Assembly: GCA_947452995.1 (NCBI GenBank)
Contig: CANGEV010000002.1
Span: 1,172 to 65,171, forward strand
Reading direction: 5' to 3'
DNA: 64,000 nt
DNA from: Chitinophagales bacterium
GTDB taxonomy: Bacteria; Bacteroidota; Bacteroidia; Chitinophagales; CAIODY01
In this document: positions 8,328 to 63,381 of the stretch, piece after piece
How positions within the stretch are numbered: the stretch's first letter is position 1
Layout: each line of letters starts with the position of its first letter
Translations under genes and position numbers: made by a program
The notes under the pieces: model-generated
Told to the model about the DNA's origin: nothing
The model's input: only the letters and a program-made list of their open reading frames with translations
Databases searched by the model: none

Positions 8328-10186
8328 TGCTTTAAATCATTTTCTAGGTGAACAATTAAATCAGTCGCTGCTTTTATTTTTTGAGCGAAATCTACGGAAA
8401 CAGCTCCCGGAGCATACAAGGCCATTTCACATTCGTTCAATAAACTATTAATCTGTTCGTGTAAATTTTCGCCGACATGATGTGCATTCAATAAGTTGCT
8501 CAGCTCGCTTCTGTTTTGTTGTTGTGTGTTCATCGACCACTTTTGTGCAAAGTACGTCCACATACACCTTTCAAGACTTTGATAAAATGCTTCGGTATTA
8601 TTCGACTTCATCGAATCTTGTGCTAGTTTCAAGTATTTACGCGCAGTATGAATCGCTTGTTTCTCTTTGTTGTTTCCAAAACGTTGCAGTATTGCAGCTC
8701 CATTCTTTCTGAATATAAAGAGTAATAAAGCCAAGATGATCGGGATGCTCATTAAGAGGTAAAACAGAAAACTGCCCCAGAACGGTTTAATAACTCGCTT
8801 CCAATCCTCCTGCCAAGCAGCGTTTAAGAGAGGCTTTACATCACTTCTCGACAACTTTAATTCTTCTCTACTTTGACCATTTATCTTCACTGAATTGCTG
8901 TGCTTCCCTTCTGCAATATCCAAGGATAGTAGCGCGGTTTTAAGCGTAACATAAGCTTGCTTGTCTAAATCGAAGTAAGAGAAATGTGCGCCGTCAATAT
9001 CAATCTTACCGCTTTCATTAGGAATAATAACATACTCAAAACTTTTACTTCCACTGATTGGATAGGCTTCCTTTTCCCAAGCATCTAATGTTTTTGGATC
9101 ATAGGTTTCAAAGTCTTCACCTGGTATGAATGTCGGTGCTTCAAAAGTTGGGAGATTTCCTGTACCACTGATTTGTACTTTGTAGGTGATCGCATCGTCA
9201 GTACTCAATTTCGTCTTGTCTGCTTTGGCGGTAATAGTAAAACGCCCAACCGCTCCGTTAAAGTCTGCTGGCTTGTTGGGAGGTAGTGGCTTAACATTAA
9301 TTTTTAAAGAACCAGAGTTGATTACATAAGGTATATCTTCATAGCCATTGAAGAAAGGATCGTTAAACATCGGATCATTAAAGAACGGATCATTGAACAT
9401 TGGGTTGTTACCAAACATCTGATCTATGATACTTTGTCTTTTATGTTTGCTCTTAACGCGAGCGAGTATTTTTATTTCTGCAGGATCTAATACTAAAGTC
9501 CCTGCATGCTGCGGAAATAGCGCCACACGCTTAAATATTAAAACATTATAGGTGGTTCCATTAATCACTTCTTGTCCGCTCACACCTTCTGGTATTTTAT
9601 ATTCTTGGTTCCAACAACCGTTAAAGGATGGAACCTTCGTTACTTGACTCCCTACAATTGCTACGTTAGTATACACCTTGTAGGTTACTGTCACTTGTTC
9701 TCCTTCATAAACACTATTCTTATCTGCCGTAATTCGTATGAAAACGTTTTTCGATAAATCTGCTCCGTTAGTAGCTGCGTTATTATTTGATCCTGCAGAA
9801 GGCTGACTAGGGGCTGCTTTATTCACTTGTACAACGAAAGAGTTAGATTCAATATTACCTGCATTCGTCACTGCTGTTGCGGGTGGTATCGTGAATCGCC
9901 CTTCTTTCGTAGCCCGGAGTATATAAGACAAGGTAAGTGTTTGTGTTGCACCGTTCATCCCAACGTTGATGCGGGTCCCTTGTATAGGGCCTTGAATCAC
10001 TTGAAACGGAGCGAAGTTGGGATTGATGAATTGTCTAACGGAGCCGTTTTCTATTGCGAAGTCGACTTGAAAGTTTTCTCCTACCTGTACTGGATTACGG
10101 GTACTACTTGCCGTAAATTTTATGCCACCTGCCATGCTGAGGAAGGAGATAAAAAGGCACAATAAAAAACTAAGTAGTCTTTTCAT
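8324..10186 (-). CDS. batD: BatD-like oxygen-tolerance protein
   Basis: Signal peptide, repeated Ig-like BatD modules, a C-terminal TM helix and a helical tail. I chose the ATG at 10186 (MKRLLSF...) over the TTG at 10204. Confidence 0.75.
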   Translation of the reverse strand: MKRLLSFLLCLFISFLSMAGGIKFTASSTRNPVQVGENFQVDFAIENGSVRQFINPNFAPFQVIQGPIQGTRINVGMNGATQTLTLSYILRATKEGRFTIPPATAVTNAGNIESNSFVVQVNKAAPSQPSAGSNNNAATNGADLSKNVFIRITADKNSVYEGEQVTVTYKVYTNVAIVGSQVTKVPSFNGCWNQEYKIPEGVSGQEVINGTTYNVLIFKRVALFPQHAGTLVLDPAEIKILARVKSKHKRQSIIDQMFGNNPMFNDPFFNDPMFNDPFFNGYEDIPYVINSGSLKINVKPLPPNKPADFNGAVGRFTITAKADKTKLSTDDAITYKVQISGTGNLPTFEAPTFIPGEDFETYDPKTLDAWEKEAYPISGSKSFEYVIIPNESGKIDIDGAHFSYFDLDKQAYVTLKTALLSLDIAEGKHSNSVKINGQSREELKLSRSDVKPLLNAAWQEDWKRVIKPFWGSFLFYLLMSIPIILALLLFIFRKNGAAILQRFGNNKEKQAIHTARKYLKLAQDSMKSNNTEAFYQSLERCMWTYFAQKWSMNTQQQNRSELSNLLNAHHVGENLHEQINSLLNECEMALYAPGAVSVDFAQKIKAATDLIVHLENDLKQ

Positions 10187-10197
10187 ATTAATGCAGT

Positions 10198-10944
10198 TTA
10201 CCAATCGTTGCCTTGTCTACTTGCAGGCACGACTTGTTTATTCTGGTCTATTTTTTGTTTCGTCTGACGTTCTTTATTACGCAAAGCAAGTAGTAAACGC
10301 TCTGCTTCCTCCTTGCTCATTACAGGCTTAGTGGCACTTGCGCCCACAGCTCCTGGTGCCTGCTTGCCTTCTTCTGATTTCGAAGTAGGATTACCGCCAT
10401 TTTGACTAGCAGCCGCTTTTTTCTTTTCCTCCTCAGCTTTCTTCCGCGCTTCCTCCGCTGCTTTTTTCTCCTTTTCCTCGCGTTCCTTTTTTTGCTGTTC
10501 GCTCTCTTGACCTTCACCGTTCTTCTTCTGCTCTTCCTCCTTTTTCTTTTGTTCTTGCTCCTGTTGTTCTTTATTCTGCGTTCCTTCAGCCCCTTGCCCT
10601 CCTTTTTCTTTTTGCTGCTGTTTTTGCTGTTGCTGTTGTTGTTGCTGTTGCTGTTGTTGCTGCTGTTGTTGCTGCTCTTTCTTCTCTTGTTCTTTTTCCT
10701 TTTGCTGTCGTTGCTGTTGTTGTTCTTCCTTCTCTTGATTTTCTAATTTCTTTTTCAGCGCTAACAGTTTTTCGTCCTCCGGGTACTGCCACAAACCTTC
10801 TCTAACAGCTGCTTTAGCTTTACCAAAATCTTTTGTAACATAGAAACGTGCCGCTTCATTGAAATAGGCTCTTGCACTTTTATTCGCCGCTATCGAAAGA
10901 AAGGGGAGTACACAAAAAATGATATATAGGAATAGTTTTCTCAT
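10198..10944 (-). CDS. batC: BatC-like TPR protein with a long E/K/Q low-complexity region
   Basis: Its position lies between batB and batD. It has a signal peptide and one TPR-like unit, followed by about 130 aa rich in E/K/Q that include a run of 17 Q. ATGA overlap with batB. Confidence 0.6.
   Translation of the reverse strand: MRKLFLYIIFCVLPFLSIAANKSARAYFNEAARFYVTKDFGKAKAAVREGLWQYPEDEKLLALKKKLENQEKEEQQQQRQQKEKEQEKKEQQQQQQQQQQQQQQQQQKQQQKEKGGQGAEGTQNKEQQEQEQKKKEEEQKKNGEGQESEQQKKEREEKEKKAAEEARKKAEEEKKKAAASQNGGNPTSKSEEGKQAPGAVGASATKPVMSKEEAERLLLALRNKERQTKQKIDQNKQVVPASRQGNDW
10624..10674 (-). repeat. 51-nt mixed CAA/CAG tract encoding 17 consecutive glutamines in BatC
   Basis: Read directly on the plus strand as (ttg/ctg)x17, in frame with the ORF. 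Confidence 0.95.
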
Positions 10945-12629
10945 TGTTCTATTTCAATAATATCTTTTAAACGTTGCTTGTATTCTTTTAGCTCCCCGAT
11001 ATCACCTTGTTTTTGTTCAGCAATCTCTAATAATTGTAAAGCCTCTTCGAATTTATCTTCTTTAAGGAGCGCTTCTAACTGCTGCTTCAAACTAGCGATA
11101 TTCGGGGCTGTTTTTTTCTGCTCTTGTTTTGGTTTATTGCTAGAATTATTCCCTTTTCTCTTTTTCTCTGCCTCCAACATCGCCTTGGCATAACTAAGAT
11201 TGTATCTGAAGTCTGCGTCTGCAGGATTCAACTTCAATGCTTTTCTAAAATATTGAATCGCACGCTGGTATTCTCTTTCTTCCATTTTGCAATTGCCCGC
11301 ATTAAAAAAAGCCTTAGCCTTGACCAAACTATCCGTTGAGTAATGTGCGGCACTTTCGTAATGGAATAAAGCATTGTCAAATTGTTGTTGCTCGTATAAA
11401 GACCACGCTAAATTATAATGTGCAATTACGTTCGAAGAGTCGCGTTTCAGGATTTTTTTGTAAAGGCTATCCGCTCGCGTGAATTGCTTCGTCTTTACCC
11501 ATTCATTCGCCTGTCGTAATTGTTTGAGTGCAGGCTTCGTGTCGAGCAATTGTGCTTCACTTTTATTCGTAAAGCAAGCAATCAAAACAATCGACCAACT
11601 CAACCAACGCTTCGAATTAGTCCACCACTTACTCGGTGTTTCAAAAAATAATCCTTCTAATAAAAGCAACACAAAAGAAATGATTAAAAAGTGCATGAAA
11701 TACGACTCATACGCTGTAAACTGCTTCTCATCCAATAATCTGTCTTCCATTTTGCTTAATTGCTCCACAATAGGCTTTAATTCTTCTTTGCTGTTTTCCA
11801 AGTGAACATATTTGCCCCCTCCGATACGAGCCACCTCACCTAAGACTTTTTCATTCAATCGCGAAATAACCGTATGTCCTTCTCCATCTTGTTTGAACCC
11901 GGCCGCTTGATTGCCCTTTTCATTAGGTATCGGAGCTCCGTTACCAGATCCAATACCGACACTGTGCACAATTACTCCGTTATCATGCGCTTGTTGCGCT
12001 GCCTCCAACGCGGTCTCATCTTGCTCTTCACCATCACTAATGATGACAATAGCTCTATTGTTTTTCGGTGCCTTTTCAGGGAAAGCACTCATTGAAACAT
12101 CAATCGCATTGCCAATAGAAGTTCCTTGCGCACTTAACATGTCTGTACTTAAATTGTCGATATACAATTTCGCTCCGGCAATATCTGTTGTAATCGGCAT
12201 TTGGATATAAGCCTGCCCAGCGAAAATCACAATGCCATAACGTTCTTCTGGTAGGGCTTCCATCAGATTTTTAACCACCTGCTTCGTTCTTTCCATCCTG
12301 CTCGGCGCAATATCCGTAGCATTCATACTTCGACTCACGTCTATCGCTACCACAATATCCGATCCCTTGTGCTTTACCTTTTCAATTCTACTTCCCATCT
12401 GTGGATTCGCAATGCCGATAATCAGCGAAGTATAAGCCAAGAGCCATAAAGTTGATTTCCACGTCAATTTACTCTCATCAAAAGAAGGTAAAAGTTTTAA
12501 TACCAATTCGCGATCGCCAATACGACGAATCTTTTTAGCACGGTTTGCTCTAACCCACCATAGCAATAGTAGGAAGAAAGGTAAAAGCCCTAACGCATAT
12601 AGATAATATGGATGTTCGAAACGTAGCAT
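10941..12629 (-). CDS. batB: BatB-like VWA-domain membrane protein with C-terminal TPR repeats
   Basis: N-terminal 2 TM helices, a VWA domain with MIDAS motif DVSRSM, a later TM helix, then TPR repeats and a coiled coil. Confidence 0.8.
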   Translation of the reverse strand: MLRFEHPYYLYALGLLPFFLLLLWWVRANRAKKIRRIGDRELVLKLLPSFDESKLTWKSTLWLLAYTSLIIGIANPQMGSRIEKVKHKGSDIVVAIDVSRSMNATDIAPSRMERTKQVVKNLMEALPEERYGIVIFAGQAYIQMPITTDIAGAKLYIDNLSTDMLSAQGTSIGNAIDVSMSAFPEKAPKNNRAIVIISDGEEQDETALEAAQQAHDNGVIVHSVGIGSGNGAPIPNEKGNQAAGFKQDGEGHTVISRLNEKVLGEVARIGGGKYVHLENSKEELKPIVEQLSKMEDRLLDEKQFTAYESYFMHFLIISFVLLLLEGLFFETPSKWWTNSKRWLSWSIVLIACFTNKSEAQLLDTKPALKQLRQANEWVKTKQFTRADSLYKKILKRDSSNVIAHYNLAWSLYEQQQFDNALFHYESAAHYSTDSLVKAKAFFNAGNCKMEEREYQRAIQYFRKALKLNPADADFRYNLSYAKAMLEAEKKRKGNNSSNKPKQEQKKTAPNIASLKQQLEALLKEDKFEEALQLLEIAEQKQGDIGELKEYKQRLKDIIEIEQ

Positions 12630-13627
12630 TATGGGAAGGTCCTTAAAATAGTATGTCGTAAAACAAATTCTAGCAATAGTAGGAGAGCGGCCATCAAGGC
12701 AAAAATCAAATATTCCTCCTTGTATTGTCGGTAGCTACTTACTTCTATTTTTGTTTTTTCTAATTTGTCAATTTGCGCATAAATATCCTTCAAGCGACTG
12801 TTTCCGGTCGCTCTGAAATATTGTCCTCCTGTTTGTGTAGCAATTTTTCGCATCATCGCTTCGTCAATCATCACTTCCTGGTTTACATACTTTTTGCCAA
12901 AAGGTGTTTGCACAGGCATTGGAGCCATTCCATACGAACCAACACCAATCGTGTAAATACGAATGCCATAAGTCTTGGCAAGCTCAGCCCCTGTTTGTGG
13001 ATCTATCAAACCGGTATTATTCACACCATCTGTCATCAAAATGATTACCTTACTCTTCGCCTTTGAATCTTTTAAACGATCCACAGCTGTCGCAAGTCCC
13101 ATACCAATAGCCGTTCCATCCTCCACCATGCCTGAATGAACGCCTTCAAATAAATCGTTCAGGATACTGTGATCAATCGTTATCGGACATTGGGTGAAGC
13201 TCTCACTGCTAAATACTACCAAACCTATCCGATCATTGGCTCTACTTTTAATAAATTCTTTTGCGAGATTTTTGGCAGCCTCTAATCGATTCGGACGAAA
13301 ATCTTCAGCCAACATACTGCTCGATACATCCAGACTTAAAACGATATCAATTCCTTCCGTAGCAATTTCATCATGAGATAAGTGATTTTGCGGACGTGCG
13401 AAAGCAAATACTAATGCGGTTAACGCTAGGATACGCATCACAAATAAAACACGTCGACCGTATTGCTTCCAACAACGACCGATATATGTCAGGCCACTAA
13501 AGCTAGAGAGCTGCAAGGAAGCTTTCCTGCGACGTTTGAAGCGAAGATTCCACCAAACGAAACCAATGATTGGTAGGATTGCTAAAAACAACCAAGGATA
13601 TAACCATATGTATTCTCCAATTTGCAT
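12629..13627 (-). CDS. batA: BatA-like VWA-domain membrane protein
   Basis: N-terminal TM helices, a VWA domain with MIDAS motif DVSSSM, and a C-terminal TM helix. 1-nt overlap with batB. Confidence 0.85.
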   Translation of the reverse strand: MQIGEYIWLYPWLFLAILPIIGFVWWNLRFKRRRKASLQLSSFSGLTYIGRCWKQYGRRVLFVMRILALTALVFAFARPQNHLSHDEIATEGIDIVLSLDVSSSMLAEDFRPNRLEAAKNLAKEFIKSRANDRIGLVVFSSESFTQCPITIDHSILNDLFEGVHSGMVEDGTAIGMGLATAVDRLKDSKAKSKVIILMTDGVNNTGLIDPQTGAELAKTYGIRIYTIGVGSYGMAPMPVQTPFGKKYVNQEVMIDEAMMRKIATQTGGQYFRATGNSRLKDIYAQIDKLEKTKIEVSSYRQYKEEYLIFALMAALLLLLEFVLRHTILRTFP

Positions 13628-13633
13628 TAGCCT

Positions 13634-14536
13634 CTAATTCTCATTTGGTTTGAATACTTCTATGAATTGAAAGGCTTGTCGAAGACTTTCCCAATGTGTT
13701 TCTATTGGCAAAGATTGTTTGGCAAACTTTACTAAATCGGCTTGCGTGAATAAATCTCTTAATAGATGCAATTCCGGCTGACTAACCAATTTTTTACTAC
13801 CCTCTAAAATCTCTTCGCTAGTAGCTTCCAGGGTCGACATACCAAATTTCTTCGCTAAAAACACACGCACAATATCCGTGAGCGCTGTCTGAAACTCTTT
13901 CTCCTTGCCTTTCAATAATAGCTCTGATTTTTCTAATTGCAATAAGGCACGTCTTGCCTGTTCGTAAGCTGTCAGTGTTTCTTCGATAGATGTAATCGCT
14001 GATGGAATCGTTGTTTTCGGACGTTTGATTCCCCAACGAATCAATAAAATGATAAATGGTAAAAGGAGTATTGCAATGATCCACCAGAGAAACTCTCTCC
14101 AATGATATGGCACCTCCAAAATTGGCTTGTTGATGCGAAATGATTTAAGCGTGTCGATAGGCAAACTGAAAACATGAATACGTAACGAATTCGGGTATAT
14201 AGTGTCAATACCTTTTGAATTTTGAACTAGGAGCATCGCATTGGGTAATGCAAACCATCCGGTATCAAAAGCCATGAAATGAATCATTTGCTGCTGCACG
14301 CCAGAGATGGAAGAGTCAATGCTACCTGCACTGATGAAGTCGATACTCGCAGTGCTGTCTTCTTCGAAATAAGGAAAAAGGACTTGCGCATGTGCAGGAA
14401 TTCCTTTTACCAAAAGCGTTGCATTTAACGGAGCACCCATTAAGAATTGAGTGGAATCTATTTTCCATTCCGCTTGTTGCGCGACTCCTTTGAAACAAAG
14501 GCATAGTAACAATATGCAATATCCAATGCATCTCAT
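13634..14536 (-). CDS. hypothetical membrane protein of the Bat/MoxR cluster
   Basis: Signal peptide and one central TM helix. It occupies the conserved slot between DUF58 and batA. ATGA overlap with the DUF58 gene. Confidence 0.55.
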   Translation of the reverse strand: MRCIGYCILLLCLCFKGVAQQAEWKIDSTQFLMGAPLNATLLVKGIPAHAQVLFPYFEEDSTASIDFISAGSIDSSISGVQQQMIHFMAFDTGWFALPNAMLLVQNSKGIDTIYPNSLRIHVFSLPIDTLKSFRINKPILEVPYHWREFLWWIIAILLLPFIILLIRWGIKRPKTTIPSAITSIEETLTAYEQARRALLQLEKSELLLKGKEKEFQTALTDIVRVFLAKKFGMSTLEATSEEILEGSKKLVSQPELHLLRDLFTQADLVKFAKQSLPIETHWESLRQAFQFIEVFKPNEN

Positions 14537-15399
14537 CGCTTTTGAAAGAATTGTCTCAACTTCATGACGTAATCATCTTGTGTATTCAAGCTGATTAAAT
14601 CAGAATGGTTTTTGGTGAATTGACTATTGATTCGAACCATTTGGTTTAGGAAACTCTCTTGATACGCCGCGCGCACTTTAGGATCTGAAAAGTCAATCCA
14701 CAGCGTTTCGCCAGTCTCCGCATCTTCAACTTTACACAAGCCAATGTCGGGCATCTGTCTTTCCTTTTCGTCAAAAACATGAATGCCGATTAAATCGTGT
14801 TTTTTACTCAATACTTTAAGCTCATCTTCAAAATTCGGACTCATAAAGTCGCTGATCAAAAACGCAATACAACGTTTTTTAATAAGCGCATGTACCGTTC
14901 TCAAAGCTGTTTGAATAGAAGTGCCTTTATGTTTTGGCTCAAAAACGAGTAGCTCTCTGATGATACGTAGAATATGCGATTTACCTTTTTTAGGAAGGAT
15001 AAACAATTCAACTTCGCTACTAAACAGGAGCAAGCCAACTTTATCATTGTTCTTCAAAGCCGAAAAGGATAACAGCGCACAGAGCTCTGCTATCAACTCT
15101 TGTTTCTGTTTTCCTAAAGTTCCAAATTGACTACTTTTTGAAATATCAACCATGAGTAATAGCGTCAATTCACGCTCCTCCTCATATACCTTGATATGTG
15201 CTTGTCCGGTACGGGCGGTTACGTTCCAGTCGATACTCCGAACATCATCACCATATTGATAAGCACGTACTTCCGAAAAGCTCATTCCTCTTCCTTTAAA
15301 GGCAGAGTGATATTCTCCGGCAAAAATATGATTGCTCAGTCCACGCGCCTTGATTTCGATGCGGCGTACTTTTTTTATGATGTCAGCAGTAGTACTCAT
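14533..15399 (-). CDS. DUF58-domain protein (MoxR-associated, VWA-like)
   Basis: The motif G-x-Y-x-S-x-FKGRGM-x-F-x-EVR-x-YQYGDD-x-R-x-IDWN is the DUF58 signature. Confidence 0.85.
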   Translation of the reverse strand: MSTTADIIKKVRRIEIKARGLSNHIFAGEYHSAFKGRGMSFSEVRAYQYGDDVRSIDWNVTARTGQAHIKVYEEERELTLLLMVDISKSSQFGTLGKQKQELIAELCALLSFSALKNNDKVGLLLFSSEVELFILPKKGKSHILRIIRELLVFEPKHKGTSIQTALRTVHALIKKRCIAFLISDFMSPNFEDELKVLSKKHDLIGIHVFDEKERQMPDIGLCKVEDAETGETLWIDFSDPKVRAAYQESFLNQMVRINSQFTKNHSDLISLNTQDDYVMKLRQFFQKR

Positions 15400-15411
15400 T
15401 CGGAGAAACGA

Positions 15412-16413
15412 CTATGGCACTTCAACACTATTGATGATCTCTTGAATGATTTGATCCGTTTGCATATTTTCTGCATTCGCTTCATACGTCAATCCGATAC
15501 GGTGACGTAATACGTCTGCGCAAACTGCACGCACATCTTCTGGTATCACGAAGCCACGGCGTTTGATGAACGCATAAGCTTTTGCCGCAAGCGCTAAATT
15601 GATACTTGCACGTGGCGAAGCCCCATAAGAAATGAATGGCTTCAAACGATGTAAACGATATTCTTCAGGTTCACGCGTAGCAAATACGATATCCAAAATA
15701 TAACGCTCAATCTTCTCATCCATGTACACGCTTCTTACCAAATTGCGTGCGTTGAGGATTTGTTCCGGACTTACTAGTGCTTGTATCGGCGCTTGTTCCG
15801 ACATTTGATTACGCATAATCAAGCGTTCTTCCTCTAAGGTTAGATAGCTGATCTGCACCTTCAACATGAAACGATCTAATTGCGCCTCCGGTAGGGGATA
15901 GGTACCTTCTTGTTCTAAAGGATTTTGCGTCGCTAAAACAAGGAAAGGTTCTGCGAGAGGAAAGCTCTCTTCTCCGATCGTTACTTGTCGTTCTTGCATC
16001 GCTTCTAGCAAAGCAGATTGTACTTTTGCCGGAGCACGATTGATCTCATCCGCAAGAATGAAGTTTGCGAAAATAGGACCTTTCTTAATATTGAAATCTC
16101 CCTTCGCTGGGTTATAAATTAAAGTGCCAACGATATCAGAAGGTAATAAGTCGGGGGTAAATTGAATACGGCTGAAACGTGCGTCGATAGCGGAGGCGAG
16201 GGTTTTAATTGCCAAAGTTTTTGCCAGACCAGGAACGCCTTCCAAAAGAATATGACCTTGCGTTAAAAGGCCAATCATAAGACGTTCAAACATCGTTTTC
16301 TGACCAATGAGTCGTTTGCCAACTTCCATTTGTAAAAGCTCGATAAATGCGCTTTCATTGTGAATGCGTTCATTCAAAGTCTTGATGTCGGTAGATAAGT
16401 TATTTGATTCCAT
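15412..16413 (-). CDS. MoxR-family AAA+ ATPase
   Basis: Walker A GVPGLAKT, Walker B ILADEINRA, and sensor regions typical of MoxR. It is the first gene of the cluster. Confidence 0.92.
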   Translation of the reverse strand: MESNNLSTDIKTLNERIHNESAFIELLQMEVGKRLIGQKTMFERLMIGLLTQGHILLEGVPGLAKTLAIKTLASAIDARFSRIQFTPDLLPSDIVGTLIYNPAKGDFNIKKGPIFANFILADEINRAPAKVQSALLEAMQERQVTIGEESFPLAEPFLVLATQNPLEQEGTYPLPEAQLDRFMLKVQISYLTLEEERLIMRNQMSEQAPIQALVSPEQILNARNLVRSVYMDEKIERYILDIVFATREPEEYRLHRLKPFISYGASPRASINLALAAKAYAFIKRRGFVIPEDVRAVCADVLRHRIGLTYEANAENMQTDQIIQEIINSVEVP

Positions 16414-41233: not shown

Positions 41234-41323
41234 GGAGACGTGTCCGAGTGGTTGAAGGAGCACGCCTGGAAAGTGTGTATACGGGAAACCGTATCGCGAG
41301 TTCGAATCTCGCCGTCTCCGCCA
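41234..41323 (+). tRNA. tRNA-Ser (anticodon GGA), encoded CCA end
   Basis: Hand-folded. Acceptor stem GGAGACG/CGTCTCC, anticodon stem CACGC/GTGTG with loop CTGGAAA, a long variable arm TACGG-gaaa-CCGTA, and T arm GCGAG-TTCGAAT-CTCGC. Confidence 0.9.
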
Positions 41324-41363: not shown

Positions 41364-41370
41364 GCACTAA

Positions 41371-41512
41371 AGCGTCAAGCTTGCTTGGGGCGCTGTTAAG
41401 TGCAAAGGAAATCAGCGCCAAAGGTGCTGCTTTTAATTTCTTTGAAGCCACCCCAAAACGAGTTCTGCGAAGCTAATCTCGTAAGTTATAGCGTCAAGCT
41501 TGCTTGGGGCGC
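41371..41512. repeat. two copies of a 23-bp direct repeat, AGCGTCAAGCTTGCTTGGGGCGC (41371-41393 and 41490-41512)
   Basis: The two copies are identical by eye and their starts are 119 bp apart. They lie in noncoding DNA between tRNA-Ser and the queA fragment. Confidence 0.85.
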
Positions 41513-41607
41513 AACATATTATTGAACTTCGAAACTATTCACTATTTATTCCCGATCCGGCGAAAGACGCGTCGGATCCATTAATTATAAAAAAACATTC
41601 ATTCCCT

Positions 41608-41753
41608 TCACGGCAATAACAAGGAACTATCGCCATAACTCAAAAAGCGAAAATCATTCGCTAGGGCATAGTCGTAAATACGCTTCCAATCGCTGCCAAC
41701 AAAGGCCGCTACTAATAAAAGCAAGGTACTATTGGGCTGATGGAAATTCGTCA
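41608..41753. repeat. left copy of the 146-bp direct repeat (partner at 43225-43370)
   Basis: Base-by-base comparison gives 142/146 identical. The first 101 nt are perfect. The mismatches are at 41709, 41734, 41749 and 41752. The repeat begins exactly at the stop codon. Confidence 0.9.
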
Positions 41754-41766
41754 AATAATTATTCAT
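41608..41766 (-). pseudogene. displaced duplicate of the queA 3' end (52-codon fragment)
   Basis: Minus-strand translation gives [52 protein letters not shown]. This is near-identical to the last 48 aa of QueA encoded at 43225-43370. Confidence 0.8.
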
Positions 41767-41837
41767 GGATGTTTAATTGTTAAAAATGTAGAATGCAAAT
41801 GTTTTAATCTATAATTTTAAATTGTTGAAAATTGACG

Positions 41838-41845
41838 TATATTTG
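41838..41845 (+). promoter_or_regulatory. candidate -7 box (TATATTTG) for the Fic gene
   Basis: It matches TAnnTTTG within the AT-rich island edge. Confidence 0.35.
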
Positions 41846-41932
41846 TAATGTATTGATAAATAAGGGATACGCAATTAATAGTGTTAATTCATTCAAGTGT
41901 CATCTGTTAATTCATCAAAAAAGATATTTCAA

Positions 41933-43096
41933 ATGTCTGAAGCAGTATTTAAACATTATGATTTGAAATTGGTAGAGCCGACTTTCGATTCTACACTAAC
42001 GGATTTAATCATTGAATTGGATTACTTGCGTAAAAAGCAGTTAAGTGGTTCCACTCATCCAAAAGTGTTTTTTCAACTGAAACATATTTTTCATACTTTA
42101 GAAAGTATCGGATCAGCAAGAATTGAAGGAAATAACACAACAATTGCTGAATATATAGAGACAAAATTATCGGATATCAAAGTCGTTACTCCAAGTATTC
42201 GTGAAATTCAGAATATTGAAAAAGCGATGGCTTTTATAGAAGAGAACGTTAGCGACTATCCAATAAACAGGACTTTTCTTAGTGAGATGCATAAAATGAT
42301 AGTTGATGGTTTACTTCCTCCACCAGATGGAGAAGGTGATTCAACTCCTGGGGAATACAGAAAAGTAAATCTAAAAATAAATAAATCTTCACATAAGCCG
42401 CCTGAATGGTTAGCAGTTGAAGAATACATGAATGAATTACTTGAATTTGTAAATAAAGGCGATAGCCCCAAATATGATTTACTTAAAACAGCAATCGCAC
42501 ATCATCGTTTTGTTTGGATTCACCCATTTGGAAACGGAAATGGTAGAACCGTAAGGTTGTTTACTTACGCCATGCTTGTTAAAGCTGGTTTCAACGTAAA
42601 TGTTGGTAGGATTATTAATCCTACAGCGGTGTTTTGCAGTAATAGGAATGACTATTACAACTTTTTGTCTGAAGCCGACAAAGGCACATTGGAAGGTCTT
42701 ACTTCATGGATTGAGTATGTTTTAAAAGGCCTAAAAGATGAGATTGAAAAGATTGATAAGTTGTCTGATTATGATTTCCTCCGTAAGGAGATTTTGCTTC
42801 CGTCAATCCATTATTCTCTAGAACGAAGGTTTATCACAGATGTTGAGGCTAAAATTCTTAAAAGAGTCATAGATAAGCAGGTAATATCTGCATCAGATAT
42901 AAAAGATATTTTCCCTGGAAAAGCGGATGCAGAAGTATCTCGACAAATCAGAAAATTAATTGATCGTAAAATGCTAATCCCAGAGAAAGAGGGTACACGT
43001 AAGTATGTTTTAAGATTTGATAATAGTTATTTATTTAGAAGCATAATAAAATTGTTAGGCGACAAAGGTTTTTTACCTGTTCGTGATGAGGTGTGA
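41933..43096 (+). CDS. Fic/DOC-family protein (class II, N-terminal inhibitory helix) with a C-terminal winged-helix-like domain
   Basis: Fic core HPFGNGNGRTVR, an upstream inhibitory motif SARIEG ([S/T]xxxE[G/N]), and a C-terminal segment EVSRQIRKLIDRKMLIPEKEGTRKYVL. I prefer the ATG at 41933. The track's GTG at 41897 is an alternative. Confidence 0.85.
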   Translation: MSEAVFKHYDLKLVEPTFDSTLTDLIIELDYLRKKQLSGSTHPKVFFQLKHIFHTLESIGSARIEGNNTTIAEYIETKLSDIKVVTPSIREIQNIEKAMAFIEENVSDYPINRTFLSEMHKMIVDGLLPPPDGEGDSTPGEYRKVNLKINKSSHKPPEWLAVEEYMNELLEFVNKGDSPKYDLLKTAIAHHRFVWIHPFGNGNGRTVRLFTYAMLVKAGFNVNVGRIINPTAVFCSNRNDYYNFLSEADKGTLEGLTSWIEYVLKGLKDEIEKIDKLSDYDFLRKEILLPSIHYSLERRFITDVEAKILKRVIDKQVISASDIKDIFPGKADAEVSRQIRKLIDRKMLIPEKEGTRKYVLRFDNSYLFRSIIKLLGDKGFLPVRDEV

Positions 43097-43224
43097 GTTA
43101 ATGCGGGCAATTTAGGTACCATACGCATCCCTGCTTTACCTACAATTTTAAGCTGATTGCGTTTTAATGTAATTGCACCAGTTTATTGTGATAAGGAGGA
43201 TGAATTAAGCTATAGGTTTTTGGG

Positions 43225-43370
43225 TCACGGCAATAACAAGGAACTATCGCCATAACTCAAAAAGCGAAAATCATTCGCTAGGGCATAGTCGTAAATACGC
43301 TTCCAATCGCTGCCAACAAAGGCCGATACTAATAAAAGCAAGGTACTATTTGGCTGATGGAAATTGGTAA
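43225..43370. repeat. right copy of the 146-bp direct repeat (the functional queA 3' end)
   Basis: See the partner at 41608-41753. Confidence 0.9.
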
Positions 43371-44433
43371 TCAGTCCTTTCACCGAACGAATCTGATAGC
43401 CTGGCGCAATGAGCAATTGCGTCTTTGTTTGTAGGCAGTCATTATGATTGCTTTCAAGATAATTTAAGATACTTTTCAAAGCTGCTTCATAGGTGAAATC
43501 GTCTGGAATACTTATATCATAGGCATCCCATTGTTTTATTTCTATATTACTTGCTCCATTTTGAATCTTCCATCCAATCCAGAAAAGGGATTCTAAGGTT
43601 CGCAAAGAGGTTGTTCCGACGGCAATAAGTTGATCGCTATTGGAAACTAAATTTTCTAAACACGCCTTGCTAACGATTATTTCTTCACTATGCATGGTGT
43701 GATCCGCCATGGCGTCTGCTTTCACTGGCTTAAAGGTTCCTGCACCCACATGCAGCACCACATATTCTTTTTTAATCTGCTTTTGTTCTAGCTCCGTTAA
43801 AATTTCAGGAGTGAAATGTAAGCCTGCAGTTGGCGCTGCTACCGAGCCTTCTTGTTTGGCATATACTGTTTGATATCTCAGTCTATCGCTTTCTTCGGCC
43901 ATGCGTTTTAAATAGGGCGGGAGCGGAATCATTCCTGATAGGTTCAAAATCTCAGCGAAGCTAAGTGGAGCATTCCATTCAAAATCTATTACAAAAATAT
44001 CGTCGACCTGCTTTGGCTTTAGCGCTTTTAAGGTGAATACTTGATCCTGATAAATAAAATCCTTACTAACACTTTCACTAGTGAAATCACGGTTGTTTCC
44101 AACGAAACATCTCCATCTAGAATGGCCTGTATGTAACATCGTACGTTCAATGGTGCTCTCTTCTGCCGGCTCTAATATAAATACTTCAATGGGTTTACTT
44201 TTCGCCATAGGGTTGGGAAAGTAAAGACGTGCATAGATGACTTTCGTATTATTGAAAATTAAAGTAGCGTTGGCTGGTAAATAGCTTGGGATAGCGGAAA
44301 ATCCATCTTGCGAAATTTCCCCCTTTTGATAGCATAGCAATTTGGAATCAGCCCGGTTAGACAAGGGTTGTTTCGCTATCCTGTCCTCCGGCAGCTGATA
44401 GGTGTAATCCTTTATTTTTATACTTCGCGCCAT
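43225..44433 (-). CDS. queA: S-adenosylmethionine:tRNA ribosyltransferase-isomerase
   Basis: YQLPEDRIAKQPL, LPPYLKR, YQTVYA, AAPTAGLHFT, HVG-x-GTF and TNFHQP motifs. Confidence 0.88.
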   Translation of the reverse strand: MARSIKIKDYTYQLPEDRIAKQPLSNRADSKLLCYQKGEISQDGFSAIPSYLPANATLIFNNTKVIYARLYFPNPMAKSKPIEVFILEPAEESTIERTMLHTGHSRWRCFVGNNRDFTSESVSKDFIYQDQVFTLKALKPKQVDDIFVIDFEWNAPLSFAEILNLSGMIPLPPYLKRMAEESDRLRYQTVYAKQEGSVAAPTAGLHFTPEILTELEQKQIKKEYVVLHVGAGTFKPVKADAMADHTMHSEEIIVSKACLENLVSNSDQLIAVGTTSLRTLESLFWIGWKIQNGASNIEIKQWDAYDISIPDDFTYEAALKSILNYLESNHNDCLQTKTQLLIAPGYQIRSVKGLITNFHQPNSTLLLLVSAFVGSDWKRIYDYALANDFRFLSYGDSSLLLP

Positions 44434-45778: not shown

Positions 45779-48382
45779 TTGAAAAGGCTTGTACTTTTTA
45801 TTGGACTTTGGCTTTTGATTGTAACGAGCCTTCCTGTCGTTGCACAAACCTATTCGCCTATAACCTTGAGTGGTTTTAATGAGGACGTAATTGCGGAGGC
45901 CATTGCTGCCACTGCGACTACCACCGCTTCAATGGATTTAACTAATCATATTCAATATTCACAAGCTTTTGCAACTGCCGCAGGAATTGCAGGCGGTCTG
46001 CCGAATACTGGGACTGTAGTAAGCGGTACACGCACCTATCAGTTTGCACCATATACGGCTAATAACACCTTTCATATTACGACTACCGCTCCGCAAACAA
46101 TGACACTAGCGACGCCAGCACGTTTTACAAAACTAAGTATCATGGGCTTGTCGACGGAAGGTTCTACTACTATTTCTGCTACCGTTAATTTTACAAATGG
46201 TACAAGCACTACGTTTAATTCCATCAACGTACAAGACTGGTTTAACGGTACTAGCGCTGTATTATGTTGCTATGGACGGACTACAAGGGTCGCTTCTGGC
46301 AATACTGCGGATGGCTTACCGAATAATCCTAATCTGTATCCAATGGATATTAATTTGTCTTGTACGGATATGCGTAAATTTGTGCAGTCGGTGACAATTA
46401 ACATTACCTCTACTTCCGGATCAAATGCCAGCGCTTATTTGTATGCATTGTCAGGGGTGGCCTATAACTTTAGTTTGAATGCAGTCGTTAACAACACAAA
46501 TTGTAGCTCAACAACTGGTAGTATTGCACTCACGCCTTCTGGAACGGGTTCTCCGTTTACTTACGCTTGGAATACAACGCCGGCACAAACTACCGCAACT
46601 ATAAGTAATCTAGGCGCTGGCAGTTATACTTGTACGATTACAGATCTTAATCTTTGTGTGGATACGATCTTCACCGCAAGTATTAATGCGGCAGGCTCTC
46701 CATTGCCTGTTACTGTAAATCCTACTGCTTTCACTATTTGCAAAAGTGATTCAGTTCAACTCACAGCCTCTGGTGCTTCAGGGTATAATTGGTCGCCAAG
46801 TACGGGGCTCTCTAATACAAGCGGAGCAGTGGTGCGAGCAAAGCCCTTGGTAACAACCACCTATACGGTTACGGAGTCGAGCTCAGGTTGTAGTGGTTCT
46901 ACTACGGTTGTAGTGACTGTTGTAAGTCGTCCACAACTCGTTTTTAACAAAGATACTTTCCGCATTTGTTTGGGTGATATGGTGAACGTGACCGTTCATG
47001 GTGCGAATACCTATACCTGGTCGCCAACTACTAACTGGGCTCCATATACTATGGATAGCGTTTTAGTGTACCCAACTACCAACACTAATTATGTCGTAAC
47101 AGGGGTGATCGCGACGGGTTGTTGGACAAAAGACACCATTACAGTTTTAGTTAGTCCGAAGCCGGTCCTTACCTTGACAAAACACTTCGATACCATTTGC
47201 GGTTCAGGCTCACGTACCTTTACTGTGGGCGGTGCAACAAGCTATGTGTGGTCGCCAATAACGGGATTGAATAATAGCACTGCGGCTACCGTTACCGCCA
47301 CACCAACTATCACAACCAACTATATTGTAACCGGTAGCACCAATGGCTGTGCGGTAAAAGACTCTGTATTGCTTTCTGTTTTTGCTAATCCAACAGTGAC
47401 AGTGAGTCCGGCTAATACATCTGTATGCGCCAATCAAGGCGTTACCCTCACGGCATCAGGTGCGCTTACCTATACATGGACCCCTACATCTACTTTGTCA
47501 GCAAGTACAGGTGCGACCGTAATCGCCAAAACGGCTACTACAACGACTTATACTGTTACTGGTAAAGATATTCATGGTTGTAAAAGTGGAGCAAACGCAT
47601 TTATAAACATTACACCGACGCCAACTGCGAATTATACCTTAGCTAAAAACACACTATGCCTTGGTGAGTCCGTATTGTTTAATTTCATTGGTTCTGCTCC
47701 TGCCGGCTCTACCTATACTTGGTCTCCGCCAATGTATTTGAGTAGCACAAGTATCGCATCGCCAACCTGCACGCCAAACTTCGCTACGAACTATACGGTA
47801 ATTATTGCTTCGCCAATTGGATGTGCCGATACAGCGCAAGTTCAAGTGAATGTGAGTATGCCGCCTTATTTAACCTTTACGCCTGTTGATACAAATGTTT
47901 GCATAGGCTCTCCTGTGGCGATCAACTCAAATAACGTATACAGCTATGTTTGGGGAAGTTCTTCGGCCTACAACTTGAGCTGTTATAATTGTTATAATCC
48001 AGTTGTAACGCCGAATGTGACGGGTTTGATTGCAATACCTGTGGTCGCTAGTAACGCGTATAATTGCACTACGATTGATACCTTCTTCTTCCATGTCAAC
48101 GATGCGTGTTTGAACTTGGAAATGCCGAGTGCATTCACGCCTGGAAATGGTGATGGGATCGATGATTATTTGAAGCCATTGGGGGACGCTAAATTGAAGG
48201 AATTAAAAATTTTCAATCGTTGGGGTAATTTGATTTTCTCTACTGACGATCCGCATACCGCAGGATGGGATGGAAGCTATAATGGCATGCAACAAGAAAT
48301 CGGTGTTTATGTGTGGTATATGATTTTTGAAACGCCATTCAAAACGGTTACTAAAAAAGGTAATGTCACCTTATTGCGTTAG
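45779..48382 (+). CDS. T9SS-secreted adhesin-like protein: novel N-domain, one SprB repeat, six Ig-like repeats, type-B (CHU_C/gliding-associated) C-terminal domain
   Basis: TTG start with a signal peptide. SprB-type repeat NCSSTTGSIALTPSGTGSPFTYAWN...GSYTCTITD. C-terminal domain SAFTPGNGDGIDDYL...IFNRWGNLIF...GWDGSYNG...GVYVWY...GNVTLLR. Confidence 0.8.
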   Translation: MKRLVLFIGLWLLIVTSLPVVAQTYSPITLSGFNEDVIAEAIAATATTTASMDLTNHIQYSQAFATAAGIAGGLPNTGTVVSGTRTYQFAPYTANNTFHITTTAPQTMTLATPARFTKLSIMGLSTEGSTTISATVNFTNGTSTTFNSINVQDWFNGTSAVLCCYGRTTRVASGNTADGLPNNPNLYPMDINLSCTDMRKFVQSVTINITSTSGSNASAYLYALSGVAYNFSLNAVVNNTNCSSTTGSIALTPSGTGSPFTYAWNTTPAQTTATISNLGAGSYTCTITDLNLCVDTIFTASINAAGSPLPVTVNPTAFTICKSDSVQLTASGASGYNWSPSTGLSNTSGAVVRAKPLVTTTYTVTESSSGCSGSTTVVVTVVSRPQLVFNKDTFRICLGDMVNVTVHGANTYTWSPTTNWAPYTMDSVLVYPTTNTNYVVTGVIATGCWTKDTITVLVSPKPVLTLTKHFDTICGSGSRTFTVGGATSYVWSPITGLNNSTAATVTATPTITTNYIVTGSTNGCAVKDSVLLSVFANPTVTVSPANTSVCANQGVTLTASGALTYTWTPTSTLSASTGATVIAKTATTTTYTVTGKDIHGCKSGANAFINITPTPTANYTLAKNTLCLGESVLFNFIGSAPAGSTYTWSPPMYLSSTSIASPTCTPNFATNYTVIIASPIGCADTAQVQVNVSMPPYLTFTPVDTNVCIGSPVAINSNNVYSYVWGSSSAYNLSCYNCYNPVVTPNVTGLIAIPVVASNAYNCTTIDTFFFHVNDACLNLEMPSAFTPGNGDGIDDYLKPLGDAKLKELKIFNRWGNLIFSTDDPHTAGWDGSYNGMQQEIGVYVWYMIFETPFKTVTKKGNVTLLR
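46709..48103 (+). repeat. six tandem protein-level modules of about 77 aa inside the adhesin gene (each C...Y-x-W-x-P...T-x-Y-x-V-T...GC)
   Basis: Read from the translation. The modules begin at TVNPTAF, VFNKDTF, TLTKHFD, TVSPANT, NYTLAKN and TFTPVDT. The DNA copies are diverged. Confidence 0.6.
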
Positions 48383-61042: not shown

Positions 61043-61825
61043 ATGGCAAAGCAGAAAAAATATAGCGTAATAAGTTATAATGTGAATGGGATTCGTGCCG
61101 CCCTTGGTAAAGGATTTGCGCAGTGGCTTGAAGAGACCTCTCCCGATGTGATCTGTTTACAAGAAACGAAGGCAAGTCCGGATCAAGTAGATACAAGTTT
61201 GTTTGAGCATCTGGGATACCATCATCATTGGCATTCCGCAGAGAAGAAAGGCTATAGCGGCGTTGCCATTCTCAGTAAGGAAAAACCAAAACACGTTGAA
61301 ATAGGTTGTGGCATGCCGGAATACGATCGCGAAGGACGTATTATCCGTGCCGATTTTGACAGCTTTAGTATCGTCAATACCTACTTCCCAAGTGGTAGCA
61401 GCGGTGACGAACGTCAGGACTTTAAAATGCGATTTTTGAACGACTATATCCATTTCATTAACGAGGTAAAAAAGTCGATTCCGAATTTGTTAGTTGCTGG
61501 TGATTATAATATCTGTCATAAAGCCATTGATATTCATGACCCCGTAAGTAATAAGGATAGCAGTGGATTTCTGCCTGAAGAGCGGGAATGGATGAGTCAT
61601 TTCTTTGAACAAGGATTCATGGATAGCTTCCGTCACTTCAATCCCAATCCGCACCATTATTCGTGGTGGTCGTACCGCGCTAATGCGCGCAACAATAACA
61701 AAGGCTGGCGTATCGATTATATTAACGCGAGCTCCGTTATGCAAGCTCGTCTGACAGGAGCTTCCATTCTCCCAGATGTGAAACACAGCGACCATTGCCC
61801 GGTATTAATCCAATTCAAGGACTAA
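61043..61825 (+). CDS. xth: exodeoxyribonuclease III
   Basis: SYNVNGIRA, CLQETK, GDYNI and SDHCPV motifs. I prefer the ATG at 61043 over the TTG at 61037. Confidence 0.9.
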   Translation: MAKQKKYSVISYNVNGIRAALGKGFAQWLEETSPDVICLQETKASPDQVDTSLFEHLGYHHHWHSAEKKGYSGVAILSKEKPKHVEIGCGMPEYDREGRIIRADFDSFSIVNTYFPSGSSGDERQDFKMRFLNDYIHFINEVKKSIPNLLVAGDYNICHKAIDIHDPVSNKDSSGFLPEEREWMSHFFEQGFMDSFRHFNPNPHHYSWWSYRANARNNNKGWRIDYINASSVMQARLTGASILPDVKHSDHCPVLIQFKD

Positions 61826-63381
61826 AGGAAAACTAACATACTCATTAGTGCAGTCTGAATAATTCGGGCGGCATTTTGTTTTTCTGCAAACCGCATCAAG
61901 AAATATACAGTGAGAAATAATCCTACTGCATTTAATCCGTTGAAGTTGGGCAAATGACTCACGGCTCCGGGCACACACGCAATTTTATGAATGATAAGAT
62001 TGAGATAGTGGATGCTAAAGACACAAACGAGCTTCCAGACGCCTGCAAGCCAGGTGATGGGATGCACCACTAATAAAAGAAGCAAAGCATATAAGACCAT
62101 CGTACTAACTGGAATCGCCCATAAATTGGCCAAGAGAAAATAATTTGGAAACTGCTTAAAGTAAAACAGGCACAACGGCGCCGTAAGCATTTGCGCTGCA
62201 ATTGATAGTGCGACAAGATTCCAGCTTGCTTGGAGTATTTTGTTTTCGAAAAATAGTAGTTGATACAGTCTGGGATAAATCCAAAAAATGCTGATAATGG
62301 CCGCATAAGAAAGTTGGAAGCCAACATCGAACGCATTCGCTGGATCTAAGAGTAGAAGAATAAATAACGAAGCCACGATGCCATTTTCTGCCTTCGCCTT
62401 GCGGTAGAAAAGCGGTCCTGCCAAGGTAATACTATACATCACGGCGGCCCGTAATACCGCCGCAGAGGCCCCAGCGAGGAATGCGAAACCCCAGATAAAA
62501 ACGATCATGAGCAGTGCTTGCCAACGCACTTTTTTTCGTAAAAAGAACAGCATCTTCTGTAACGCAATCACCACCAAACCCAGGTGCATGCCGCTTACGG
62601 CAAGAATATGTGAAAGCCCACAAGCCGTATAGTCGGATTGTAAAAATTTACTTAGTCCTTCCTTCTCGCCAATACATAAGGCAGTAGCAAAACAGGCGAG
62701 GCTATCGGGAAGGTTTTTATGAAATACTTCGCTGATATATTCCTGACTCCGATATAAAAAACGTTTCTGTGAAACTACGTTTTGCGTGATTTCGATGGCG
62801 GAGCTCTGCTTTCTTACATACACAATTCCGTCAATGCCCCTATTATAGGCGTTTTGTTGCCATTCTTGTAGCGTATCTTTTTTTGCGAAGTTGAGAATAC
62901 TCCCGCTTGCTCTAATGCACATCCCTTTTCCTAAGTCTGCTTGTTCTGCATATAACCATAGCTTTCCAGTAACAATTCGTTGCTGCACACTGTGCAGTGC
63001 AAGGGTAAAACGGGTGCTCTTGCCCGGACGTTTTTTACAGTCTATGATTTGGGCTTCTAGTTCCACCGCACCACTAATTGCATAATGTGATAGATGCTTT
63101 TTTTGCGCGCGTGGGTTGCGGAGATGGGCATAGAGCCAGGCGCATCCTAAAAGAAAGGTGATAAACCCTATATGTTTAAGATACTCCTTTCGATAGGCTA
63201 TTTTCCCGAAGCGGCCATAGAGAAACATTCCTAGCTGACACGTACCTCCAATAAATAGTAGAAGCAAAGGTGTTCGCAACCCAGCGTTCGGAAAGACCTT
63301 CTCCGCAATAATTCCACCAAGTAGAATCACGAGTGCTCGCAACAAAGGCAAGCGCTGCCACCAACGACGCGGTTCATTCAT
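61822..63381 (-). CDS. comEC: ComEC/Rec2-family membrane protein (DUF4131 plus competence domain, no beta-lactamase domain)
   Basis: 519 aa, polytopic. GLSHILAVSGMHLG is the core competence-domain motif. Confidence 0.78.
   Translation of the reverse strand: MNEPRRWWQRLPLLRALVILLGGIIAEKVFPNAGLRTPLLLLFIGGTCQLGMFLYGRFGKIAYRKEYLKHIGFITFLLGCAWLYAHLRNPRAQKKHLSHYAISGAVELEAQIIDCKKRPGKSTRFTLALHSVQQRIVTGKLWLYAEQADLGKGMCIRASGSILNFAKKDTLQEWQQNAYNRGIDGIVYVRKQSSAIEITQNVVSQKRFLYRSQEYISEVFHKNLPDSLACFATALCIGEKEGLSKFLQSDYTACGLSHILAVSGMHLGLVVIALQKMLFFLRKKVRWQALLMIVFIWGFAFLAGASAAVLRAAVMYSITLAGPLFYRKAKAENGIVASLFILLLLDPANAFDVGFQLSYAAIISIFWIYPRLYQLLFFENKILQASWNLVALSIAAQMLTAPLCLFYFKQFPNYFLLANLWAIPVSTMVLYALLLLLVVHPITWLAGVWKLVCVFSIHYLNLIIHKIACVPGAVSHLPNFNGLNAVGLFLTVYFLMRFAEKQNAARIIQTALMSMLVFL

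Follow-up and report, generated by a model that had tools for sequence, protein, structure and literature searches.

The window analysed here, a stretch of 64,000 nucleotides taken from contig CANGEV010000002.1 of a Chitinophagales bacterium (assembly GCA_947452995.1, positions 1,172 to 65,171 of the forward strand), contains an insertion carrying a Fic gene at the 3′ end of queA. The queA gene, which encodes a 402-residue S-adenosylmethionine:tRNA ribosyltransferase-isomerase, lies at 43225-44433 on the minus strand, and its last 146 bp (43225-43370, minus strand) recur as a direct repeat at 41608-41753 (minus strand). Between these two copies, the sole open reading frame (ORF) of at least 60 amino acids with a family match is a Fic gene of 387 codons, located at 41933-43096 on the plus strand (Pfam Fic, 1.2e-18, 68 bits against a cut-off of 24). 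This gene is preceded by an AT-rich upstream region (41738-41932, plus strand) and followed by a spacer (43097-43224) leading to the queA stop codon. The G+C content of the insert is 33%, compared to 41% for the window. Beyond the left copy, a native spacer (41513-41607) separates the repeat from a small scar (41368-41512) and from the tRNA-Ser(GGA) gene at 41234-41323 (plus strand; ARAGORN, Rfam tRNA 54.7 bits), which forms the left border of the interval. ARAGORN and Rfam returned this tRNA-Ser only, and no tRNA- or RNA-based attachment (att) site was found in the repeat or the insert.

The two copies of the queA 3′ end

Direct alignment of the two copies revealed 142 identical positions out of 146, and a repeat search returned the same pair. 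The similarity stops exactly at the queA stop codon, and the 101 nt counted from the stop are identical in both copies. These results bear out most of an earlier description of the locus, made from the sequence alone and called hereafter the original prediction, which had reported this repeat with its perfect first 101 nt, an intact queA completed by the right copy, a stranded 52-codon fragment with an ATG in the left copy, and a Fic gene alone between the two. The queA product covers positions 2-322 of the 322 positions of the Pfam Queuosine_synth profile (1e-93), and a 52-codon ORF does lie over the left copy on the minus strand (41608-41766), its ATG being supplied by cassette DNA.

The four mismatches between the copies are located at 41709/43326 (C/A), 41734/43351 (G/T), 41749/43366 (C/G) and 41752/43369 (C/A). 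They cluster at the inner end of the repeat, as previously described, but the change from Ile to Leu deduced from them is an effect of the junction, and the innermost 12-16 bp (41738-41753), previously counted as duplicated queA, belong instead to the Fic cassette, whose conserved upstream end happens to resemble queA. The genuine queA duplication measures about 130-141 bp and contains 2-3 differences, including those at 41709 and 41734.

For comparison with the window, loci and contigs were fetched and given L-numbers, members of a QueA cluster at 90% supplying the contigs for the tRNA-Ser/queA interval. The window queA is 94-95.5% identical at the nucleotide level to that of the relatives L163 and L166-L169. 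At both diagnostic sites (41709 and 41734), six out of six relatives share the bases of the stranded copy, and the A (43326) and T (43351) of the right copy are absent from all six. The left copy, which carries the consensus bases of these relatives and keeps the native downstream flank, may be read as the resident original queA end, and the right copy as a functional 3′ end placed on a foreign downstream flank. The T in GCTTTTATT is present in both window copies and in none of the six relatives; therefore, either the donor was very close to the recipient or the duplication arose in situ. The copy-specific bases were also considered as a pointer to the imported copy, but their pattern suits Campbell-type, linear and in situ duplication models alike.

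A 1576-bp Logan unitig (L002, 4 samples) is exactly identical to window positions 41679-43254, and it terminates on either side where the repeat forces a branch in a graph of k=31. Because this independent unitig reproduces them, both inner junctions are real. As a further observation, the duplicated coding end of queA contains a terminator-like hairpin with a T-run (AGCGAATGATTTTCGCT TTTTGAG), at 41646-41662 and 43263-43279 (minus strand).

The Fic gene and its upstream region

The Fic protein carries the motif HPFGNGNGRTVR at residues 197-208, in which an asparagine replaces the Asp/Glu of the HxFx(D/E)GNGRxxR consensus, as well as an inhibitory-helix-like motif, SARIEG, at residues 61-66. 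It thus combines the fold and the motif of Fic/Fido AMP-transferases. It matches the CccR structure (PDB 7XUX) with an E-value of 2.7e-123 across residues 6-382, its C-terminal region aligning with the DNA-binding part of CccR, and it matches the PADLOC SoFic model at 3e-47. Through these two matches, the protein resembles CccR of Yersinia pseudotuberculosis and the single-gene SoFic defence system; unlike SoFic, it scores 43 bits against the NCBIfam SoFic equivalog, whose cut-off is 550, and no type VI secretion system context was seen. On the basis of these similarities, the gene is a candidate CccR/SoFic-like AMPylase and a candidate toxin or anti-phage gene. CccR is known to AMPylate FtsZ and to repress its own promoter (PMC9755527).

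The AT-rich region upstream of the gene (41738-41932) retains 88-93% nucleotide identity across unrelated contexts and is a candidate promoter and auto-operator. It harbors a TAnnTTTG box at 41838-41845 and, just 5′ of the Fic start, two TGTTAATTCAT direct repeats (41882-41892 and 41905-41915) spaced 23 nt apart, one of which has been lost through a 24-nt deletion in two related loci (L089 and L094). By analogy with CccR, these copies are possible operator half-sites for the DNA-binding domain of the Fic protein itself. A self-contained, autoregulated expression unit of this kind would account for the joint transfer of the upstream region and the ORF.

Empty and occupied states of the tRNA-Ser/queA interval

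Close relatives of the window QueA in public data are limited to one 90% cluster and one protein at 78% identity, the QueA proteins of the best species representatives being 44-56% identical to that of the window. In two relatives (L168 and L169, 95.3-95.5% nucleotide identity), the site is empty: a single queA end with its stop codon is followed by the spacer (window 41607-41487) and by tRNA-Ser, exactly the arrangement that the original prediction had anticipated. Alignment of the window with these two sites revealed a gain of exactly 1,617 bp and the loss of no native base. The spacer at 41513-41607 is native, as shown by its alignment with L166-L169 and by its contiguity with the single queA stop in the empty-site relatives. 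In L163, the 26 nt located 3′ of the queA stop also match window positions 41607-41582.

Other relatives display an alternative occupant. In L166, L167, L188 and L189, queA is adjoined by a different Fic gene, coding for a SoFic-type protein of 368 residues with Fic_N, Fic and SoFic-like_C domains, which is only 27% identical to the window Fic. This gene lies between queA and tRNA-Ser in L166 (11416-12896) and L167 (1946-4811), surrounded by direct repeats of about 47 bp of the tRNA-Ser terminator. In L167, a partial copy (27 nt) of the tRNA-Ser 3′ end comes after the SoFic cassette, and next to it lies an island encoding a tyrosine integrase, a resolvase, a HTH_17 protein and a type I restriction enzyme; the att site of this island is the tRNA-Ser 3′ end, not queA. 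With its empty, SoFic-type and CccR-type states, the tRNA-Ser/queA interval behaves like a strain-variable hotspot, comparable in its alternative occupants and its empty state to the hotspots of defence and toxin genes.

A last contig, L164 (1-2851, Logan SRR31133853), is a mosaic. It matches the window at 88-100% on the side of YceI and at 95-97% over the last ~300 nt of queA, whereas the first ~1 kb of the gene and the upstream spacer reach only 46-75%; a LytS-type histidine kinase gene follows queA in place of tRNA-Ser. This contig is either a real recombination tract within queA or a chimera. As the 300 N-terminal residues of its QueA remain nearest to the window clade (73%), it was rejected as proof of a transferable queA surrogate, and its mosaic structure would reflect recombination at the locus rather than an element carrying a surrogate end.

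Distribution of the Fic cassette

The Fic homologues outnumber those of QueA, with more than 100 clusters at 83-96% amino acid identity for the former against two clusters above 70% for the latter. A metagenome scan with the Fic sequence yielded 79 loci, none of which has queA within 6 kb, and clustering of the flanking nucleotide sequences gave between 49 (left side) and 59 (right side) unrelated groups. For most of the nearest loci, nucleotide identity of 88-93% extends from 41738/41766 to ~43092-43107 and no further, and the sequence from 43108 to 43224 is specific to the window. The transferable unit is accordingly made up of the Fic ORF, about 195 nt upstream and about 10 nt downstream. 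Because it recurs at 88-93% identity in about 50-60 unrelated contexts, whereas relatives of QueA are few, this cassette is horizontally mobile. The original prediction had proposed a search for other copies of the inserted segment and for an integrase associated with it: the copies exist in these contexts, and the integrase found in L167 has its att site at tRNA-Ser.

In its other locations, the unit has ordinary genes or genes of the defence type as neighbours, and no recombinase was seen linked to it. The closest Fic homologue (96% identity, in L187, 1-9416) lies behind an XRE-type helix-turn-helix gene, in the company of a reverse transcriptase, a GIY-YIG/SLFN-type helicase with a Peptidase_S24 domain and a MazG-like protein, a neighbourhood that looks like a defence island. 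Carriage of the cassette by phages or plasmids was considered and rejected, no match above 53% identity being present in the collections searched: IMG/VR gave a single Fic match, at 27% identity, the matches in a phage collection were all below 60%, those listed reaching at most 30%, and the plasmid collection gave matches of at most 53%, in Pasteurella and Photobacterium. Separately, one locus (L097, 442-2642) shows Fic cassettes in tandem, a complete one being followed after ~700 nt by the upstream region and the first 68 codons of a second; this partial copy has diverged, with 78% nucleotide identity to the window.

Anatomy of the joints

The two ends of the insert differ in nature. On the left, a block with the sequence TGATGGAAATTTGTCAAATAATTATTCAT is located 195 or 171 nt 5′ of the Fic ATG in the window and in L084-086, L089, L092-094 and L098, and the sequences to the left of this block are unrelated among these loci. 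The first 11 nt of the block are exactly those of queA at 43355-43365. The novel joint, J1 (41738-41748), is formed by this sequence, TGATGGAAATT, common to the upstream end of the cassette and to the TNFHQ codons of queA, and lies within ~10 nt of the conserved left edge of the cassette. Next to it, base 41752 is that of the cassette and not that of queA, and base 41749 fits neither partner. An independent case of partial identity between a cassette end and the native sequence at the joint was observed in L105, with a different cassette end.

On the right, cassette homology ends at ~43107, and the spacer between the Fic stop and the queA stop (43097-43224) was taken as the flank of a donor haplotype. 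The sequence that follows the queA stop in the window (ACCCAAAAACCTATAGCTTAATTCATC) is identical to the corresponding sequence of L164 at 23 of 27 positions, the stop codon followed by ACCCAAAAA... being also present in L164, and a looser resemblance to the downstream sequence of this contig extends over ~55 nt of the spacer next to queA. Because L164 has such a similar post-stop sequence, this second joint looks like a natural contiguity in another haplotype. That the repeat homology ends precisely at the stop codon is what two orthologous alleles would show if their intergenic flanks differed.

Search for integrative-element and transposon features

No integrase, transposase or excisionase was found by Pfam among the window ORFs of at least 167 amino acids, in agreement with the lack of a recombinase noted in the original prediction, and the integrase of L167 has no tblastn match within the 64-kb window. 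A repeat search of the insert found no terminal inverted repeats. The locus shares with e14-type integrative elements the direct repeats of a target 3′ end and the intact target gene, and lacks an integrase inside the repeats and a reused att core. As for cis-mobilizable elements (CIMEs), no integrase-bearing relative was found to use the same att, the one of L167 being the tRNA-Ser 3′ end. Transposons and insertion sequences do not account for the arrangement either, given the lack of transposase and inverted repeats and the length of the duplications, from 30 to ~400 bp.

Two candidate sites were considered in the course of this search. A queA-specific att core carried by the cassette, sought as a 14-mer with at most 2 mismatches, was rejected, as it was found to the right of the Fic gene in none of the eight loci with the same left end. 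The queA 3′ end is not supported as a common integration site in Bacteroidota, since none of 81 other queA loci has a second, stranded queA fragment within 10 kb, a distance that islands larger than 10 kb would escape.

Duplications flanking other Fic genes

Direct repeats of at least 30 nt were searched for in the 1.2-kb flanks of the Fic loci, with random 1.16-kb segments from other Bacteroidota loci as controls. Such repeats surround 9 of the 61 testable Fic loci (~15%), compared to 3 of 213 controls (1.4%; Fisher p = 1e-4). These duplications are imperfect copies of local sequence, 30-400 bp long, either coding or non-coding. They include a 187-bp repeat at 86% identity (L115), a 141-bp repeat made of a gene end and its terminator (L120), a 60-bp repeat ending at a stop codon (L108), and those of L110 and L105. 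A similar pattern (105+ bp) was seen in L111, outside the testable set, and a separate genome family (L176, L179 and L180) carries a 211-bp repeat of a non-coding promoter region.

In L130 (4705-8600), a Fic homologue at 70% identity and a gene for a 315-residue protein lie between copies of ~385 bp that are 96-98% identical. The repeated sequence is the region just 3′ of a transfer-messenger RNA (tmRNA) gene, a degenerate 3′ end of tmRNA stands before the right copy, and the length of the repeat is much greater than that of a normal att site. In L119 and L142, 16-nt repeats overlap 3′ parts of tRNA genes. The elements follow a constant order: repeat, spacer of 110-180 nt, cassette in either orientation, joint of 0-40 nt, and repeat.

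Origin of the insertion

Our preferred reading, to which we give a probability of roughly 45%, is a Campbell-type or homology-facilitated illegitimate integration, combining one homologous exchange in the queA 3′ end with one microhomology joint. The 1,617-bp unit would be composed of the cassette (41738-43107), about 117 bp of donor flank and a copy of the last 130-140 bp of queA, and no dedicated recombinase would be involved. A donor fragment, bearing the Fic gene about 117 bp 3′ of a closely related queA, would have been circularised at the 11-nt microhomology between the upstream end of the cassette and the TNFHQ codons of queA, forming a circle junction in which the A and T of the right copy are followed by ...GGAAATTCGTCAAATAATT. 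This circle would then have integrated by a single Campbell-type crossover in the ~130 bp of queA homology; by an alternative path, a linear fragment would have reached the same structure through homology-facilitated illegitimate recombination. The outcome would be an intact queA, a stranded resident 3′ end and a native sequence kept in full.

A crossover with a circle bearing a copy of the target region yields this architecture, with repeats of arbitrary length and content. The locus displays two marks of such an event, an empty site without native loss and one microhomology joint. The similar duplications around other Fic cassettes and the recombination at this locus suggested by the mosaic queA of L164 also count in favor of this reading. 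Among the three origins offered by the original prediction, the microhomology speaks for capture by homologous recombination more than for island decay or mobilisation in trans. The 97%-identical repeats should in turn allow RecA-dependent loss or re-circularisation of the Fic unit. A ComEC/Rec2-type competence protein is encoded at 61822-63381 (minus strand; Pfam Competence, 3.4e-54), and this gene may reflect a DNA-uptake machinery in the organism, as permissive evidence.

Several points weigh against the Campbell-type reading. The donor arrangement, a Fic gene beside an unduplicated queA, was not found in the loci compared, and ComEC by itself is no proof of competence. J1 nearly coincides with a cassette edge shared by other contexts, as a defined element end predicts; repeated trimming to a minimal functional unit would account for this position. 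The repeats of L119, L142 and L130 are tRNA or tmRNA 3′ ends, like the att sites of integrases, and an integrase island adjoins the site in L167. Elsewhere, flanking repeats at 85-87% identity would serve RecA badly, unless their divergence followed the insertion. Finally, the base common to both window copies and absent from the six relatives also fits a duplication in situ.

Part of this evidence would be explained by a cargo-only, CIME- or satellite-like cassette, in which a 1.6-kb circle with a surrogate queA 3′ end as attP is integrated by an enzyme acting in trans. The footprint equals that of icd/icdC around e14 (PMC13626634), the concept of CIMEs is established (PMC5704250), and in L167 a SoFic cassette between repeats does stand in tandem, within the hotspot, with genes for a tyrosine integrase, a HTH_17 protein and a resolvase. 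The tRNA-Val, tRNA-Arg or tmRNA-end repeats around other Fic loci and the position of J1 at the defined left edge of the cassette point in the same direction. However, the L167 integrase uses the tRNA-Ser 3′ end, none is encoded in the window, the eight other loci with the same cassette have no queA surrogate or second core, no stranded 3′ end exists at the 81 other queA loci within 10 kb, and repeats of 30-400 bp that include non-coding DNA are unlike a fixed att. The surrogate-end footprint described by the original prediction stands, but a dedicated attP targeting queA is not supported, as no surrogate or second core was found with the cassette outside the lineage, and we regard integration in trans as doubtful. 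A larger integrase-bearing island at the queA 3′ end, from which all but the Fic gene was lost by internal deletion, would leave the same surrogate-end footprint in a hotspot that does receive larger islands (L167 and L168). This history appears quite improbable, given that the deletion must have stopped exactly at an independently delimited cassette edge, with an 11-nt match to queA, and that no remnants such as partial genes or att-int fragments persist between the repeats.

A long target duplication formed in situ is another improbable origin, in which staggered-break repair or microhomology-mediated template switching would have copied the spacer and cassette into a break or a collapsed fork, with duplication of ~140 bp of the resident DNA and a few differences acquired later. 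It accommodates the microhomology at the joint, the T in both copies that no relative has, and the variable-length local duplications, coding or not, around the cassette elsewhere, but the exact end at the stop codon and the flank resembling the queA downstream sequence of another strain argue for two alleles. It would also place both later changes in the selected copy and none in the free copy, a weak objection (p ~0.25). An assembly artefact, either a 1.6-kb circle and an empty site mis-joined across the 101-nt block or a chimera of two strains, has to be considered for a metagenome-assembled genome, all the more since, in contig-level data, linkage across 101 identical bases is the one point that separates the integrated topology from that of a circle plus an empty site. 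It seems very improbable in view of the independent unitig from other runs, which reproduces both inner junctions and the copy-specific base 41709, of the occurrence of the exact Fic and QueA proteins together on several long contigs, and of analogous repeat-flanked arrangements in many unrelated assemblies.

Relation to known systems and implications

The closest analogy in outcome is found in the icd gene of E. coli, where the DNA brought in by e14 or phage 21 provides a near-identical 3′ end and leaves icdC stranded (PMC13626634). Both cases involve the 3′ end of a housekeeping gene, a replacement end, a stranded fragment and a few, mostly conservative, differences. Whereas e14 is a prophage of 15 kb that encodes its integrase and uses a fixed att, the window insert measures 1.5 kb and has one cargo gene and no recombinase; moreover, this cargo is present in about 50-60 contexts without a queA surrogate, and its inner joint is a microhomology with its own upstream end. 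Like CIMEs, the locus carries cargo between direct repeats without integration genes, and the tandem of an integrase island and a repeat-flanked Fic cassette at tRNA-Ser in L167 recalls CIME accretion (PMC5704250). In contrast to CIMEs, no partner element with a queA att was found, and the length and content of the repeats vary from locus to locus.

The Campbell-type reading has its own precedents. As in such events, the window combines a homologous anchor with a single joint placed at a short microhomology. When a circle integrates by a single Campbell-type crossover, the homologous segment ends up on either side of the insert, and no dedicated recombinase is required. Integration of the Campbell or illegitimate type is known mainly from laboratory transformation, and its linear form usually deletes rather than duplicates. 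Homology-facilitated illegitimate recombination and insertion-duplication in transformable bacteria were reportedly described by de Vries and Wackernagel in 2002 and by Prudhomme et al. in 2002. Unlike in these laboratory cases, competence, the donor and the circular intermediate are here inferred. A literature search on defence hotspots yielded no direct precedent for this exact mechanism.

Defence and toxin genes are often located in hotspots without mobility genes, and their arrival is vaguely credited to recombination of the flanking core genes. The present locus offers a checkable footprint of such an arrival: the site exists empty and with either of two Fic genes, the insert measures exactly 1,617 bp, one joint lies at a microhomology, and the duplication preserves queA, a gene of an essential pathway. 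Within the Fic cassette family, similar flanking duplications are about ten times commoner than around random segments. If these duplications are driven by host recombination, imperfect flanking repeats could serve genome-wide as a sign of genes gained recently without a recombinase; should an integrase be at work in trans instead, queA would add a new att site of the protein-gene type to those of Bacteroidota. To the organism, the insertion brings a strain-variable, predicted CccR/SoFic-type AMPylase, probably losable through recombination between the repeats.

A broader proposal, speculative and rather unlikely in our view, is that these Fic genes are recombinase-free mobile single-gene cassettes, minimal and autoregulated, which loop out through RecA or microhomology, are taken up and re-enter by single crossover. 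If general, such a cycle would constitute an overlooked route by which defence and toxin genes reach hotspots without genes of mobile elements.

Other features of the window

A second, smaller scar is present between tRNA-Ser and the native spacer, at 41368-41512, where the repeat search detected a 93-bp insert (41394-41486) between 26-bp direct repeats (41368-41393 and 41487-41512) with the sequence TAAAGCGTCAAGCTTGCTTGGGGCGC. This insert is missing in L166-L169, which hold one copy of the 26-bp repeat, and it contains a terminator-like hairpin at 41413-41429. The 93-bp insert and the 117-bp spacer next to queA were examined as repeated elements and rejected, both being single-copy across the window and all fetched loci.

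Further from the insertion, an aerotolerance-like operon typical of Bacteroidota (BatA-BatD, MoxR-type AAA, DUF58 and VWA proteins) extends over 8324-16413 on the minus strand. Together with a CHU_C protein of type IX secretion encoded at 45779-48382, this Bat operon places the organism in Bacteroidota.

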